Of a stretch of 64,000 bases of DNA, positions 1,832-58,332 are shown piece by piece. Positions within the stretch are counted from its first letter, which is position 1. Every line of letters starts with the position of its first letter. The DNA is taken from NCBI GenBank assembly GCA_964508155.1, contig CAZDRE010000006.1, positions 7,266 to 71,265 of the forward strand. Direction: 5' to 3'. Both the position numbers and the translations under genes were made by a program. The notes under the pieces were generated by a model. That model was not told the origin of the DNA, did not search any database, and was given only the letters and a program-made list of their open reading frames with translations. This DNA is from an uncultured Candidatus Bathyarchaeia archaeon (GTDB lineage: Archaea > Thermoproteota > Bathyarchaeia > Bathyarchaeales > DTEX01).

Positions 1832-2982
1832 TCACGCCTAGACGCCTTAAGGATCAAGTGTGCATATATTTCAGCCGCCTTGACGATCTCGCTGACATCG
1901 GCATACTCATTTATTTCATGTGCTTGCTCGATCCTTCCAGGCCCAAATATCACTGTTTGGATCCCATGATTCACCAAATGAACCATCTCGCATGTGGCTG
2001 TGAACCCTGAAATTTTAGGTTCAACTCCCATAACCTCTTTGACAGCCTCCCTCATGATTCGAACTATCTCAGCATCCGGACTCGTCATAGAAGGCGGAAC
2101 ATACCTGTATCTCTCAAGCCTATACTTGAACTCTTCATCCCTCCTTCTAATCCCTTCAAGTATACCTATGAGTTCGGATTCTGCATCTTCGACATTCTCT
2201 CCGAGAACCAATCTGCGATCAATCGACGCTTCACAGAAGTTCGGCACTACATTATCCTTCTCGCCGCCTCTTATCGTATTAAGAGAGATAGATGGATGAC
2301 CCAGAAGGGAATGCCTCCTCACGCGTAGTCTCTCCGACAATCTTCTGATCTCCAAGCACGCCTCAGCCATTTTGTATATGGCATTTATGCCTCTTTCAGG
2401 AGAGCTCGAATGCGCTGATCTTCCAAACGTTAAAAGTCTCCATTTAACTCCGCCTTTATGCGCGATCATCACTTCAAGCCCCGTAGGCTCGCCTACAACA
2501 GCCATTTCAGCTTGGTATCCTCTAGAAAGTATGTCCTCGGTGCCCATGCCGGATACTTCCTCGTCTGAAACCAGAAAGACGAGTATCTTACCTTCGATCT
2601 TATCCGCGACGGCCTCAGCTGCCGAAAGGAAAGCGGCAATTGAAGCTTTCATATCAGCTGAGCCTCTTCCGTAAAGTCTGCCATTGATGATCTTCCCCGA
2701 GAATGGATCCCCCTCAATCCATAAGTCCGGGTTTCCTGCAGGAACAGTATCTAAATGTCCATCGTAGATCAGCCTTGCTTCTCTTCCTGAACCGAGCTCT
2801 CCAATTATATTGGGCCTTTCCGGCTTGAAATCGTATCGTGAGACTTTAAATCCTATTTCTCGCATCTTGGACTCTAAAAAATCCGCTAGCTCACGCTCGT
2901 TCCCCGGAGGATTTTCACTTGGGATCTTAACAAGCGAGGATGCAAGTCTCAGAATCTCATCTCTATCTATTTGTATCTTCAT
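1828..2982 (-). CDS. M20-family metallopeptidase / deacylase (ArgE/DapE-like)
   Basis: 384-aa ORF with 'GHLDTVPAG', 'GRGSADMKAS' and 'VSDEEVSG', the M20 metal-ligand motifs. Confidence 0.8.
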   Translation of the reverse strand: MKIQIDRDEILRLASSLVKIPSENPPGNERELADFLESKMREIGFKVSRYDFKPERPNIIGELGSGREARLIYDGHLDTVPAGNPDLWIEGDPFSGKIINGRLYGRGSADMKASIAAFLSAAEAVADKIEGKILVFLVSDEEVSGMGTEDILSRGYQAEMAVVGEPTGLEVMIAHKGGVKWRLLTFGRSAHSSSPERGINAIYKMAEACLEIRRLSERLRVRRHSLLGHPSISLNTIRGGEKDNVVPNFCEASIDRRLVLGENVEDAESELIGILEGIRRRDEEFKYRLERYRYVPPSMTSPDAEIVRIMREAVKEVMGVEPKISGFTATCEMVHLVNHGIQTVIFGPGRIEQAHEINEYADVSEIVKAAEIYAHLILKASRRE

Positions 2983-3110
2983 TGTATCTTCACCTCTTCA
3001 ATATCGCACTTATATAATTGACTTAAGACAGTTCCACTAATCTACAAGTGAATTCGAGAGGGAAAATGATAAATCTTCTTTAGGCCGATAAATGGCTGGA
3101 GGATCATAAG

Positions 3111-4283
3111 TTGATTTCTCAGTTCCTATCCAGACGTGCCCGCGAAGTCCCTGAATCCGGAATTAGGGAGATGTTCAATATCGCTCAGAGATTAAGCGGT
3201 GTCATAAATCTCTCGCTTGGAGAGCCGAATTTCAAAACTCCACAGCACATTATAAGGGCGGCCATGGAGGCATTGCAGAGTGGCTATACGCATTATACTC
3301 CGAATCGAGGATTGCTGGAGTTCAGGGAGGCCGCCGCTCATAAACTTAAGGTTGAGAATAACATAGATGTTGATCCTGAAACTGAAGTTATGGCGACCGT
3401 AGGTTCTATGGGAGCATTATCCTTAACTATGCTTACGATAATCGATTGTGGAGATGAGGTTCTCATACCAAGCCCTGGATATGTAAGTTATGAGTCTCAA
3501 GTCTTAATGGCTGGGGGAAGACCGGTTCCTTACAGGCTAAAGGAGGAGAATCGATTTCAGCCAGATCTAGATGAGATCTCAAGCTTAATTACTCGTAAGA
3601 CGAAGGCTATAGTGGTGAATTCTCCGTCAAACCCGACCGGAGCAGTTTTCGACTATGATGTGCTTAAGGGAATAGCTGATCTGGCAGCGGATGAGAATCT
3701 GCTTGTAATCTCAGATGAGGCGTATGAAAGAATAACCTATGATGGCGTTAGACATATAAGCCCTGCCTCTCTGCCAGGAATGATGGACAGGACGATTAGC
3801 ATATTCTCCTTCTCTAAGACATACGCCATGACTGGATGGCGGATAGGATACGCGGTTGCGAATAAAGAGATAATATCTGAGATGACAAAGCTCCAGGAGC
3901 ATCTTGTTGCTCACCCGAGCTCGATATCTCAGATAGCCGCAACGGCTGCTTTAAGGGAGCTAAACGGCCAAGTTGAAAGAATGGTTAGGGAATACGCTGA
4001 GAGAAGGCGAATAATAATGGACGGACTTTCAAAAATTCCGGGAATAAGGTTTCAAAGGCCTAGGGGCGCCTTTTACATATTCCCAAATATCAGATCATTT
4101 GGAATGTCATCAGAGGAGTTTACGATGTACCTTCTTAGGGAAGCGAAGGTTATTGTAGTTCCGGGATCAGCTTTCGGAAGATTCGGCGAGGGATACATTA
4201 GAATTTCATATTCTGTCTCAGGGGAGATGCTGAAAGAGGCCATTAGAAGAATCGCGGAGTCCATTGAAAGGCTGAATGCCTAA
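3111..4283 (+). CDS. class I/II PLP aminotransferase (aspartate aminotransferase-like)
   Basis: 390-aa ORF with a TTG start. It carries 'NSPSNPTG' and the PLP-lysine motif 'SFSKTYAMTGWRIGY'. Confidence 0.85.
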   Translation: MISQFLSRRAREVPESGIREMFNIAQRLSGVINLSLGEPNFKTPQHIIRAAMEALQSGYTHYTPNRGLLEFREAAAHKLKVENNIDVDPETEVMATVGSMGALSLTMLTIIDCGDEVLIPSPGYVSYESQVLMAGGRPVPYRLKEENRFQPDLDEISSLITRKTKAIVVNSPSNPTGAVFDYDVLKGIADLAADENLLVISDEAYERITYDGVRHISPASLPGMMDRTISIFSFSKTYAMTGWRIGYAVANKEIISEMTKLQEHLVAHPSSISQIAATAALRELNGQVERMVREYAERRRIIMDGLSKIPGIRFQRPRGAFYIFPNIRSFGMSSEEFTMYLLREAKVIVVPGSAFGRFGEGYIRISYSVSGEMLKEAIRRIAESIERLNA

Positions 4284-21763: not shown

Positions 21764-21990
21764 AGTTACTGAGCGAACTCAAATCTGAACTTCAGGTCTA
21801 AACCTAGAGTATAGATAATTCGGGAGAAATATTAATGGTTTCTGAAGATGGTTCTGTTGCGTCTTCGAGGGGTGGGTGGTAGCTTGGCTTGTTGCTTTTC
21901 GAGTGTTGCATTGCGGGAGACGCAACTTCCCCTCTTCTGCTCACCTAGCTTGTCCTCATCGCCGTATGGCTCGTTAGGGCTAGGTTCATA
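21764..21990 (-). ncRNA. candidate TnpB-associated omega/reRNA region (scaffold overlapping the tnpB 3' end, guide-like 15-mer at 21764-21778)
   Basis: The position matches the known TnpB architecture: the scaffold spans the ORF 3' end and right end, with the guide just beyond. Inverted repeats lie at 21856-21863/21919-21926 (GTTGCGTC/GACGCAAC) and 21867-21872/21929-21934 (GAGGGG/CCCCTC). No covariance model was run. Confidence 0.25.
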
Positions 21991-23136
21991 GCTACATTTG
22001 AGGGGCGGTCGAGGGCGAACCACACCCTCCCATCTGAGTAGGTTAATACCTGCTACGATGTGTCTGTTCATTAAGCCGTGTCTTTCGCATTCCACCAGCC
22101 CATTCGGGTATCTCTTCAGCCTAAACCCACATATCGGGCAGGTGGATGAGGAACCCCTGGTGTATCGGCTCTCTACGGTCTTAACGCCCTCCCACAAAGC
22201 CTTATATTCAATCTGGTTGAGGAACTTCCTGAACCACCAGTTGTTCAGTCTTCTCTTGAGTTTCTTAGAGCGCTTTGAGATCAGCTGAACTTTACCGTTG
22301 AACCTGTTGAGTCGTTCACTCTTCGCATTCACGGCTTTCCTTAAGCCCTTCAGGTCCTCATAGATTAAGCCATAATTCTTCTCTCTGCACCATTCTATTA
22401 TGCGTTTTGAGACTTGATGAAGCATCGTGGAGACCTTGTTGCGGTAGTTCCCAGACAGCTTTGAGAGAGCCTTCCTCAATACCCTTCTATCCTTTTGGTA
22501 TCTCCGTTGAAGATTCCTTTTCCTCTCGAAGTATCCGTAACCAGCTTCCTTCAACTTGGATAGGTCGAAGACCTTAACCTCGCCGTCGGAGCTTAAGGCT
22601 GTGACGTTATCCTCATTTATGTCTACTGCGATCCAGCCTTCAGGCTCCTCCGCCTTAACAGTCTTGGAGAAGGCTACATAGACAGCTTTCGAGGTCAGAG
22701 TTACTGAGCGAACCCTATATTCTTCTAGGAGGTCTCTAGCTCTCTTATAGAGCTGTATATGGAGGTATTGTCTAGGCTTTAAGGGTATTCTCAGCATCCC
22801 GTTACCTACTTTAACTGCTTGGTTCCCGATTTTAGCCATGAGCCTTCTAGCTCTAGGAGCCTTAACCCTACTATTTCTCCTCTTAGCTTTCCTGTAATTC
22901 TTGAGGATGACCGTAGCGACCTCTATGGCTGAGAGCACATACCAGCTATGATACCCATATTCCATCAGCCTGTGATAGACCTCTCTCGTAAGCCTAAACC
23001 TCGAGGTTATCCCCTTCTCCAACCCTATGCGGATGCAGTAGTTAACCATATTCCTGAATGCCTCAAGAAGCCTTAGAACATCCTCCGGGGGCTGGTAAGG
23101 TATAGAAACAGCCCTCAATGCCTTGGCCGCTTCCAC
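21832..23136 (-). CDS. tnpB: TnpB-like (IS200/IS605 OrfB) RNA-guided nuclease homologue with non-canonical RuvC-III motif
   Basis: 434-aa ORF with a GTG start. RuvC-I is 'WIAVDINEDN' and RuvC-II is 'LIYEDLKGL'. The zinc finger is 'CPICG...CERHG' (CCCH). The expected 'dRDvNAAiNIl' reads 'NRHIVAGINLL'. A ~65-aa low-complexity C-terminal tail follows. Confidence 0.75.
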   Translation of the reverse strand: MEAAKALRAVSIPYQPPEDVLRLLEAFRNMVNYCIRIGLEKGITSRFRLTREVYHRLMEYGYHSWYVLSAIEVATVILKNYRKAKRRNSRVKAPRARRLMAKIGNQAVKVGNGMLRIPLKPRQYLHIQLYKRARDLLEEYRVRSVTLTSKAVYVAFSKTVKAEEPEGWIAVDINEDNVTALSSDGEVKVFDLSKLKEAGYGYFERKRNLQRRYQKDRRVLRKALSKLSGNYRNKVSTMLHQVSKRIIEWCREKNYGLIYEDLKGLRKAVNAKSERLNRFNGKVQLISKRSKKLKRRLNNWWFRKFLNQIEYKALWEGVKTVESRYTRGSSSTCPICGFRLKRYPNGLVECERHGLMNRHIVAGINLLRWEGVVRPRPPLKCSYEPSPNEPYGDEDKLGEQKRGSCVSRNATLEKQQAKLPPTPRRRNRTIFRNH

Positions 23137-23265
23137 TCCTCATACACCTCCAGAAGCTTCAGTATAACCTCTTCATAGCTTTGCCTAGGATGGACTAAGC
23201 TCCGCCAGCCTCCTCAAAGTTGACCTATGGAGAGCCACCGTCGTCTTTCTATCGATCTCAGACAT
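23115..23265 (-). pseudogene. small RHH/CopG-type (COG1753 VapB-like) gene, frameshifted, overlapping the tnpB start
   Basis: ATG at 23265 gives 'MSEIDRKTTVALHRSTLRRLAELSPS*' (stop at 23185-23187). The +1 frame continues 'VHPRQSYEEVILKLLEVYEEWKRPRH*' (stop at 23115-23117). Joined, they match the 'T..l...T..rL.el....eSy.evI..LLe' antitoxin pattern. Confidence 0.45.
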
Positions 23266-23278
23266 ACAATATCTTGTA

Positions 23279-23301
23279 ATGCCAAGGCATATTTAGAAAT
23301 A
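23279..23301 (-). promoter_or_regulatory. TATA-like box plus 12-bp palindrome upstream of the RHH-like ORF (leaderless-type spacing)
   Basis: The minus strand reads atttctaaatATGCCTTGGCATtacaagatattgtATG. The AT-rich box is centred ~29 nt upstream of the ATG. ATGCC-TT-GGCAT (23279-23290) is a perfect inverted repeat. Confidence 0.4.
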
Positions 23302-23405
23302 TCCAAAGATGCAACGCAAGAAAACCAAAACGCTTTTCTACTACTCACCACTCATAAACGCAACAGAACCCTGAAGATAAAATATTAAGTATCCATCGAT
23401 ATCTC

Positions 23406-57964: not shown

Positions 57965-57990
57965 TTAGAGGCTTATTATAGTAACAGATC

Positions 57991-58332
57991 CTATGCTAAA
58001 CTTCTTATAATTTCCGATCTCGTGATAAGTTTTATTCCCCTACGATTCGCGTAGGCCTTTGCATGCTCACTGAACTTTTCTGAGATTAATATTGGATTTG
58101 AGAATCTCTTATCTTGTGATGCCTTATCAAAGTTTATTACGACGTTAACTCCGACTGTTCTGTTCCATTCTTTAACCAAGACTGGATGCATTTCATTCTG
58201 CTTAACTACAATAAAGTCTATCTTGGAGCTTTCCGATGTAGATGATGACCCCTTTTGCCCCGGCCTCTCAATCCTATATCCTCTCCTCCTGAAATATTCA
58301 ATCGCTAATTTCATTAATGGTTCACGTAACAT
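57991..58332 (-). CDS. Mrr-cat-like restriction-endonuclease-fold (PD-(D/E)xK) protein
   Basis: 113-aa ORF with 'YFRRRGYRIE', 'IDFIVVKQNEMHPVLVKEW' and 'PILISEKFSEHAKAYANRRGIKLI', which fits the Mrr catalytic-domain layout. Confidence 0.5.
   Translation of the reverse strand: MLREPLMKLAIEYFRRRGYRIERPGQKGSSSTSESSKIDFIVVKQNEMHPVLVKEWNRTVGVNVVINFDKASQDKRFSNPILISEKFSEHAKAYANRRGIKLITRSEIIRSLA

Follow-up and report, generated by a model that had tools for sequence, protein, structure and literature searches.

A TnpB-like gene with histidine at the RuvC-III position lies within an archaeal element bounded by inverted repeats and target-site duplications

We analysed a 64,000-nucleotide stretch of DNA, here called the window, from an uncultured Candidatus Bathyarchaeia archaeon (GenBank assembly GCA_964508155.1, contig CAZDRE010000006.1, positions 7,266 to 71,265). 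It carries a TnpB-like gene in which the third catalytic position of the RuvC nuclease is occupied by His. An original prediction, made from the sequence alone, held that the RuvC-III triplet DRD is replaced by NRH and that this copy may be a nuclease-impaired, domesticated protein resembling the RNA-guided repressors called TldR. We find that the gene belongs to a 1.5-kb element with terminal inverted repeats (TIRs), a target-site duplication (TSD), a small ribbon-helix-helix (RHH) gene and a putative omegaRNA-like gene. Left and right refer to the strand of the gene, which is the minus strand. The features of the locus are as follows.

21850..23370, minus strand: whole mobile element, 1,521 bp, with an RHH pseudogene, the TnpB-like gene and the omegaRNA-like RNA between TIRs
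23379..23388, minus strand: target motif TTAATATTTT, adjoining the left TSD copy on its 5' side; family consensus AAnnYTTW
23371..23378, minus strand: left TSD copy ATCTTCAG, adjoining the TIR, an exact 8/8 match to the right copy
23309..23370, minus strand: left TIR, the minus strand starting GGTTCTGTTGCGT at 23370; inverted match of 21850-21911
23288..23299, minus strand: TATA-like box TTTCTAAATATG, a putative internal promoter ~25-35 nt upstream of the RHH start codon, by direct reading
23115..23265, minus strand: small RHH gene (DUF7557/VapB-antitoxin-like), disrupted, by comparison with the translations of loci L002, L082, L086 and L003
21832..23136, minus strand: TnpB-like open reading frame (ORF), 434 aa, GTG start, folded part ~aa 1-372
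22621-22623, minus strand: RuvC-I Asp172 (AVDIN), by direct reading
22612-22614, minus strand: Glu175 of the RuvC-I D-x-N-E motif (motif 22612..22623), from the family alignment
22357..22359, minus strand: RuvC-II Glu260 (IYEDLK)
22078..22140, minus strand: CCCH zinc finger C333/C336/C350/H353, by direct reading
22060..22062, minus strand: RuvC-III His359 codon cac, aligned on the catalytic Asp position
21850..22032, minus strand: omegaRNA-like structured RNA, core 21926-22032, terminal hairpin ~21856-21928
21850..21911, minus strand: right TIR, ending ...GACGCAACAGAACC at 21850, which doubles as the 3' arm of the terminal RNA hairpin
21842..21849, minus strand: right TSD copy ATCTTCAG, adjoining the TIR, which would supply the opening 8 nt of the presumptive guide
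21830..21849, minus strand: presumptive DNA template of the guide, made up of the TSD copy and flank, assigned from the analogy to TnpB omegaRNAs

The TnpB-like ORF matches the Pfam families OrfB_IS605 and Cas12f1-like_TNB, and scores 93.7 bits against NCBIfam guided_TnpB, slightly below the cutoff of 100. An AlphaFold2 model (predicted local distance difference test score, pLDDT, 83.9) is confident for residues 1-372; residues 375-434 fall below 50 and are disordered. The best Foldseek matches of the model are Cas12f and TnpB structures, over the full length, with TM scores of 0.52-0.65 and E-values down to 4e-14, and the WED-REC-RuvC-zinc-finger (TNB) fold of the TnpB superfamily is present. 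The C-terminal tail is disordered and unconserved because the last 60 codons read through the RNA: codons ~370-434 overlap the RNA gene and the right TIR, with the stop codon beyond the element boundary. We pooled 175 distinct family proteins, from which the residue counts below are taken unless another set is named. Asp172 is kept in 170 of these and Glu260 in 172, and the zinc finger of relatives is either CCCH or CCCC. The window protein departs from the clade consensus (positions conserved at >=90%) at only two residues, both conservatively (K8R and V247I). Pairwise dN/dS values, window-versus-relative pairs included, are 0.13-0.25, indicating purifying selection. The intact ORF, the two conservative departures and a dN/dS of 0.14-0.25 exclude a degenerate pseudogene.

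When the protein was compared with the PDB by phmmer, MNRHIVAGINLLR aligned onto MMDRDLNAAVNICR of 9j09_A, a solved Cas12n, and the family-profile segment dRHvnaclnlL aligned onto the NaDxNAaxNI motif of several Cas12f/TnpB structures. These pairwise and profile alignments place His359 at the catalytic Asp of RuvC-III. The site therefore differs from the canonical D-E-D triad in its third residue only. Asp172 and Glu260 are present, and the RuvC-III segment reads N357 (aac), R358 (aga), H359 (cac), followed by IVAGINLL. In all of this the original prediction was accurate, from the intact RuvC-I and RuvC-II motifs to the codons aac aga cac, with His at 22060-22062. It had also argued that a single-base error could not account for the motif. 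Two independent Logan assemblies from separate sequencing runs (L001 and L112) are 100% identical over the three codons, and with the clade-wide motif they exclude a sequencing error or frameshift as the source of NRH. The part of the claim that did not stand is the Asn, since residue 357 is D in 97 family proteins, N in 46, S in 11 and G in 6. A large "NADxN" clade of TnpBs likewise has N at the first triplet position (PMC10691335). Judged from these alignments, N357 is uninformative and His alone matters.

The His is widespread among relatives, as the homologue surveys made plain. In a survey of 120 database homologues, x-R-H was found in nearly all at 43-100% identity, and D-R-D appeared at ~30% identity. 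Across the pooled proteins, residue 359 is H in 99, D in 51 and Q in 9, and Asp172 and Glu260 are both retained in 96 of the 99 His proteins. An exhaustive family-profile scan of 1.84 billion 50%-identity representatives retrieved 252 family members at a cut-off of E<=1e-30, and the best 150 of these include at least 28 His and 9-10 Gln clusters. By species-representative loci, the His form occurs in Bathyarchaeia, other Thermoproteota, Methanomethylicaceae and the Asgard Atabeyarchaeia, with at least 12 copies in one complete Atabeyarchaeia-1 chromosome; relatives in Nitrososphaerota retain Asp at RuvC-III. The His persists through a radiation reaching down to ~40% protein identity. In a neighbor-joining tree it arose once, inside a lineage already bearing Glu175, with Asp+Glu175 forms basal. 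Because the His is conserved in a large, singly derived clade that keeps Asp172 and Glu260 and shows dN/dS of 0.13-0.25, these comparisons indicate that it is a fixed character of the clade and not a lesion of the window copy.

Glu175 predates the Asp-to-His change and co-occurs almost perfectly with His or Gln. It is paired with His in 97/99 proteins and in 27/28 of the 50%-identity representatives, and Asp-clade proteins mostly have Leu at this position (43/51). Glu175 may be a compensating carboxylate. A Gln (D-R-Q) subclade of 8 proteins (P0039, P0042, P0045, P0047, P0050, P0052, L098 and L008) is nested within the His clade in the same tree. Two of its members also have Asp172 changed to Tyr, which suggests incipient decay in that subclade.

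The boundaries of the element are sharp. A DNA match to the copy at locus L002, which is ~82-83% identical and lies in an unrelated context, begins and ends exactly at 23370 and 21850. The TIR pair at these positions is 62 bp long and imperfect (74% identity), and both repeats begin GGTTCTGTTGCG. We compared the ends of 43 elements. The terminal GGTTCTGTT is conserved among them, so that the ends can be written GGTTCTGTT...AACAGAACC. The TIR consensus is GGTTCTGTTRMNTYT..CGG, left and right ends agree on average at 17.5/20 positions, TIR length is roughly 20-60 bp, and the terminus is kept across element proteins as divergent as 26% identity. TSDs of 8-9 bp are perfect in 20 elements and have one mismatch in 7, giving 27 elements with a TSD. 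These include members of the Asp clade, so this layout of TIRs and TSDs is older than the Asp-to-His change. An alignment of ten Atabeyarchaeia copies spans ~1,292 bp; their TIRs read GGTTCTGTTACCTCTGCGGTTG, and every site has an 8-bp direct repeat of its own. Two shortened derivatives were found at other loci.

L102:1311-1626, RNA model on the minus strand: miniature inverted-repeat transposable element (MITE), 316 bp, with family TIRs and a perfect 8-bp TSD CCACTCCA
L025:3940-4672: internal-deletion derivative, 733 bp, from Atabeyarchaeia, with both TIRs and the RNA scaffold (94 bits) and most of the ORF lost

The MITE sits inside another TnpB-like gene and consists essentially of omegaRNA scaffold and repeats. 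Within the 64-kb window, tblastn, blastn and the covariance model described below found no further copies or fragments of the element. A lone GGATCTGTTAC 11-mer at 57981-57991 (minus strand) resembles a TIR terminus; it lacks an inverted partner and an RNA-model match and is probably due to chance.

The RNA region extends from the codon of W369 to the right TIR, beginning directly after the RuvC-III helix. We assessed its structure with RNAalifold, slid-alignment controls, 500 shuffles and a covariance model of the core, R1. RNAalifold found 12 pairs with compensatory changes. In the alignment 96.3% of cells are paired, compared to 41-50% in the slid controls, and none of the 500 shuffles came up to what was observed. 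The terminal hairpin pairs GTTGCGTC with GACGCAAC of the TIR and leaves an AGAACC tail at the boundary. Its helix (helix 6) has four pairs with compensatory changes and co-varies with TIR subtype. R1 scores 118 bits at 21926-22032, its sole match in the window. It matches all His-clade elements at 66-118 bits, the L102 MITE at 86.8 bits and three Asp-clade elements weakly. Members of the TnpB superfamily typically have a structured RNA that runs over the 3' end of the ORF as far as the right boundary of the element, and by these covariation measures the anatomy of the 3' RNA is that of an omegaRNA. Rfam gave only sub-threshold matches, to C/D-box snoRNAs (sR39, 17.7 bits; SNORD75, 17.4 bits; gathering threshold 50), at 21905-21963 and 23110-23158 (minus strand), over the RNA region and the RHH/TnpB junction. 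They were taken as chance.

Target-site statistics cover the 27 elements with a TSD. On the left flank, T is found at -3 in 22/27 insertions (p=5e-9) and at -2 in 24/27 (p=2.5e-11), with A at -8/-7; the other flank of the same insertions gave no motif signal. The four nucleotides next to the left TSD copy read YTTW. Within the His clade only, Y is found at -4 in 17/17 and T at -3 in 16/17. The consensus AAnnYTTW may be a transposon-associated motif (TAM) of the kind read by TnpB, or may be part of a promoter-like element composed of a B recognition element (BRE) and a TATA box. Two points lean mildly toward a TAM: the elements have a TATA-like box of their own, and the MITE lies in coding DNA with only CTTG. 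The Atabeyarchaeia copies have TTTAAATA at the place equivalent to the TATA-like box. The candidate guide of the window copy has no second match within the window. The insertion site (23371-23388 and 21829-21849, minus strand) originally had two near-identical TTAATATTT motifs ~18 nt apart. One is now left of the element, in the TAM-like position, and the other is just right of the TSD copy.

The RHH gene of the window copy is broken. A 2-nt deletion near 23195 (GAGCTTA--GTCC) leads to a premature TAG, and the TnpB ORF is intact. Relatives at L002, L082, L086 and L003 have an intact 50-aa RHH ORF that overlaps the TnpB start and matches Pfam DUF7557 (E=4e-7 to 6e-8; DUF7557 is also recorded in L002) as well as VAPB_antitox. 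The gene is absent from the Atabeyarchaeia subfamily, whose elements are 1.29 kb long, and from all Asp-clade elements. Besides the RHH gene, no second ORF was found in the 43 elements.

The window copy is flanked by genes for a class-III aminotransferase and an archaeal pilin-like protein, and none of ~120 related loci shares its neighbours. A search for an empty-site allele with the exact neighbouring proteins retrieved the same strain only, with the insertion present. We also looked for recent transposition through identical proteins at several loci and found no sign of it in the candidates P0011 and P0079, each of which has one locus. The P0011 locus (L113:3001-6403) contains a 53-aa ORF, the TnpB-like gene and, 5 nt further on, a full-length MCM helicase gene, an arrangement that is stable across 14 contigs. 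A study of Atabeyarchaeia describes five polymorphic "IS-like" elements from 1.3 kb upward, possible counterparts of the present elements (PMC11529989). Taken together, the TIRs, TSDs, many insertion sites and the MITE testify to past transposition, and recent mobility appears to be low. Single loci and divergent paralogues may be the reason that the clade has been scored as non-mobile.

Other loci of the family provide further observations. Decay is evident in a 74%-identical copy from a Thermoproteota metagenome-assembled genome (L006:3734-5258): its TnpB gene has acquired an in-frame stop (RLNNW*FRKF) and an insertion within the zinc-finger region, and its RHH gene is frameshifted. The 8-bp TSD of this copy nonetheless remains perfect. 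At L010:2054-2968, 1 kb from the main Atabeyarchaeia copy, lies a second, truncated TnpB-like gene of another subfamily with its own GGTTCTGTTAAC end, so several subfamilies coexist in one genome. The closest homologue on a long contig (L002:1-21308) is surrounded by many small ORFs without family matches and a DUF5131 gene, a virus- or plasmid-like setting that also contains a second, canonical TnpB (2658-3692, N-A-D-Y-N motif). The protein P0104 (559 aa, JGI), annotated as thiamine-monophosphate kinase, has a TnpB C-terminal segment between AIR-synthase-type domains and is probably a gene call running across an insertion in thiL.

We conclude, with a probability of roughly 0.6, that the window holds an intact archaeal TnpB with an Asp-to-His change, serving as the effector of a 1.5-kb TIR/TSD element with RHH and omegaRNA-like genes, and that its RuvC site is most likely functional. 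RNase-H-fold enzymes accept exchange of Asp and His at the last catalytic position, as seen in Argonautes with DEDH or DEDD sites. The D172/E260/H359 site, perhaps aided by Glu175, most likely still binds metal and stays functional; the caution in the original prediction that His could still bind metal was sound. The evidence from the window suggests a maintained and probably working site. In the mechanism we propose, the TnpB-like protein would bind the 3' RNA, and the guide would be transcribed off the right flank, so that it consists of the TSD copy and the flank behind it. An unoccupied target would read YTTW, then the TSD sequence, then the flank. This order would give TAM-protospacer geometry for a guide made at the right end, and each copy would thus be programmed against its own empty site, as in the homing or retention of IS200/IS605 TnpBs. 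A separate transposase acting in trans, possibly an IS6-like one, probably moves the element itself.

Several observations weigh against this conclusion. The Gln subclade shows that neither a carboxylate nor an imidazole is strictly required at position 359, so loss of catalysis fits there as well as compensation by Glu175. The RHH partner of the window copy is frameshifted. AAnnYTTW also resembles an archaeal BRE followed by half a TATA box. The identical proteins P0011 and P0079 occur at one locus each across samples, and paralogous Atabeyarchaeia copies are only 78-88% identical to each other. A tblastn search of the ~720 kb of window and loci found no transposase, a weak test made with an IS26 Tnp query. 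No experimental assay of a His-variant TnpB was found in the literature searched.

Two readings would give the protein a role other than that of a transposon effector, and we consider both improbable. That the window copy is a TldR-like RNA-guided repressor serving its host, as the original prediction proposed, would fit the single copy in 64 kb, the housekeeping neighbourhood of aminotransferase and pilin-like genes, the substituted catalytic Asp and the intactness of the TnpB ORF beside a broken RHH partner. The copy nonetheless has intact TIRs and a perfect TSD, sits in a neighbourhood common to none of the ~120 related loci, and has a guide without a second target in the window. One of its three catalytic residues is changed, as opposed to the two or more that define TldRs, and the substitution is clade-wide in multi-copy elements, at least 12 of them in one Atabeyarchaeia chromosome. 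The prediction had named close NRH homologues that are demonstrably mobile and cleaving as evidence against it. Close xRH homologues do occupy unrelated neighbourhoods with TSDs of their own, which makes them mobile, though in the evolutionary sense only. We therefore find domestication hardly credible. The other reading, proposed by Altae-Tran et al. in 2023, takes the RHH protein as an antitoxin and the TnpB nuclease as its toxin. The small RHH/VapB-like ORF does overlap the TnpB start in several subfamilies, and a co-fold model and a patchy distribution have been published for RHH-TnpB (PMC10691335). A type II toxin-antitoxin system should not keep an intact toxin without an intact antitoxin. 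In the window the RHH gene is frameshifted and the TnpB gene is intact and well conserved, a state that a simple pair would make lethal unless the toxin does no harm when no target matches. The RHH gene is also wholly missing from the Atabeyarchaeia subfamily and the Asp-clade elements, and the pair sits within a TIR/TSD transposon. These points make a toxin-antitoxin role very unlikely.

The remaining readings keep the protein within the transposon and differ over what its active site does. The His and Gln variants could be nuclease-dead and still transposon-borne, acting as RNA- and TAM-guided DNA binders in the life cycle of the element. Such proteins might mark YTTW-adjacent sites for an unlinked transposase, in the manner of Cas12k, or might regulate the element together with the RHH protein. 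The loss of the catalytic Asp, the retained omegaRNA and the stable Gln subclade, in which the position tolerates a non-ligand residue, are all consistent with this, and so is the fixed spacing between insertions and a TAM-like motif that is asymmetric, since a symmetric DDE transpososome by itself would hardly produce such spacing. Nuclease-dead Cas12k and TldR are precedents (PMC10705468). However, Asp172 and Glu260 are kept in 96/99 His proteins, in contrast to the progressive decay of the site in TldRs, and the His is conserved through a radiation to ~40% identity. A guide taken from the present flank would be unable to direct insertion at new sites, no transposase partner was identified, and published work infers an active clade (PMC10691335). 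We consider a nuclease-dead role unlikely, with an appreciable chance nonetheless. It is also conceivable, at a much lower level of credence, that the TnpB-like protein is itself the transposase, its D-E-H/D site cutting ends and transferring strands and its TAM-reading domain picking YTTW sites. No other transposase candidate is encoded in the 43 elements, the TIR terminus is kept across proteins down to 26% identity, the target motif is asymmetric and TAM-like, and the deletion derivatives and the MITE retain the RNA scaffold beside the TIR. On the other hand, such a transposase is without precedent, TnpB is dispensable for the transposition of IS608 and ISDra2 (PMC3119063), the IS6-like ends with 8-bp TSDs point to a DDE enzyme acting in trans, and the MITE shows that trans-mobilisation occurs anyway.

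Returning to the conclusion that this is an intact transposon effector with a probably working site, we put forward a broader proposal tentatively, as one we think possible and rather doubtful. Under it, these elements form an undescribed archaeal insertion sequence (IS) family in which a TnpB-omegaRNA system rides on or drives a TIR transposon with TSDs of 8-9 bp, with targeting coupled to a TAM-like AAnnYTTW motif, a guide that matches each copy's own empty site, and an Asp-to-His change (with Glu175) that has re-tooled the nuclease and not abolished it. The hosts of such a family would be Bathyarchaeia, other Thermoproteota, Nitrososphaerota and Asgard archaea, a range we hold with the same reserve. 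If the proposal is true, the homing logic of TnpB extends beyond IS200/IS605/IS607, and the published reading of the clade as a non-mobile RHH-TnpB toxin-antitoxin pair is wrong. A clade filed as immobile and possibly a toxin-antitoxin pair is found in genuine transposons, whose TIRs and TSDs depart from the IS200/IS605 rule of having neither. The order of TAM-like motif, TSD and flank provides a testable model of RNA-guided homing for a cut- or copy-and-paste element in often polyploid archaea, Asgard archaea included. Single-residue changes in RuvC are easily misread as signs of dead enzymes. The natural D-E-H site, the nested D-E-Q site and the co-varying Glu form a ready series for studying the role of the third RuvC residue, and could also be a source of compact thermophilic editors whose metal or substrate preference is altered.

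Among known systems, TldRs, like the window gene, derive from TnpB, have an altered RuvC site and keep a gene for a guide RNA. TldRs have lost two or more catalytic residues and/or are truncated at the C terminus, lack transposon ends, and are fixed beside fliC or oppF in phages and bacteria (PMC10705468). The screen that defined them was limited to proteins with at least two mutated DED residues, single changes being often spurious (Wiegand et al., PMC10705468). The window gene, in contrast, has one changed residue, an intact zinc finger and RuvC-III helix, and intact ends. It has neither a fixed gene partner nor, when its guide was matched within the window, a promoter-matching guide.

The TnpBs of IS200/IS605 elements (IS1341-type, for example ISDra2) have the same WED/REC/RuvC/zinc-finger fold. 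They likewise have an omegaRNA running over the 3' end of the ORF to the right boundary and a T-rich motif in the left flank, on the TAM side. IS200/IS605 elements have no TIRs and no TSDs and are moved by the Y1 transposase TnpA (PMC4810608; PMC13565253). IS607, another carrier of canonical TnpB, also has neither TIRs nor TSDs. The window family differs from IS200/IS605 in having TIRs, 8-9-bp TSDs and the His, in having no TnpA, and in that the TSD separates the TAM-like motif from the left end. A Y1 HUH TnpA, which autonomous IS200/IS605 members have, and insertion directly 3' of a 4-5-nt target, which also marks IS200/IS605, were both absent.

IS6 elements generate an 8-bp TSD, as the window element does. 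The inverted repeat of IS6 elements (IS26, IS257/IS1216), ggttctgttgcaaag, equals GGTTCTGTTGC of the window element over the first 11 nt, and the similarity stops there (PMC2920175). The combination of a TIR beginning GGTTCTGTTGC / GGCACTGTTGC with an 8-bp TSD is therefore shared with IS6. The DDE transposase that lies between the repeats of IS6 elements is missing, with no such gene in the 43 elements, and an oriented target motif is not known for IS6. Other TnpBs and Fanzors are linked to DDE transposases and have inverted ends, for example the IS630-linked "DDE-6", and their solo copies are presumed to have moved in trans (PMC10691335). These DDE-associated branches include autonomous copies with an adjacent DDE gene, and none was seen in the window family. 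The parts of that paper available to us do not tie DDE-linked TnpBs to IS6-like ends with 8-bp TSDs.

The closest published counterparts come from the same work. Altae-Tran et al. (PNAS, 2023) described six TnpB branches with an altered RuvC-III motif, Asp-to-His included, inferred from conservation that the rearranged branches are active, and classed an archaeal RHH/MazE-TnpB clade with a long 3' untranslated region as non-mobile, proposing a toxin-antitoxin role for it (PMC10691335). The branches "RIIIr-4", "MazE" and "RIIIr-6" share with the window family an archaeal host, the Asp-to-His change at RuvC-III with intact RuvC-I and RuvC-II, a small RHH/antitoxin-like (AbrB/MazE-type) gene upstream, a long 3' region that could hold a guide RNA gene, and conservation that implies retained function. 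Unlike RIIIr-4, which has lost its C4 zinc finger, the window family has a zinc finger (CCCH/C4), and the RHH gene of the window copy is broken. If the family is one of the published branches, a match that rests on the description in PMC10691335 and not on accessions, "MazE" and "RIIIr-6" are better candidates than RIIIr-4 proper. The window family goes beyond the published branch description in its TIRs, its 8-9-bp TSDs at many sites and its RHH-less subfamilies. The Asp-to-His substitution itself is thus already known, and the TIR/TSD/TAM architecture around it may be undescribed.

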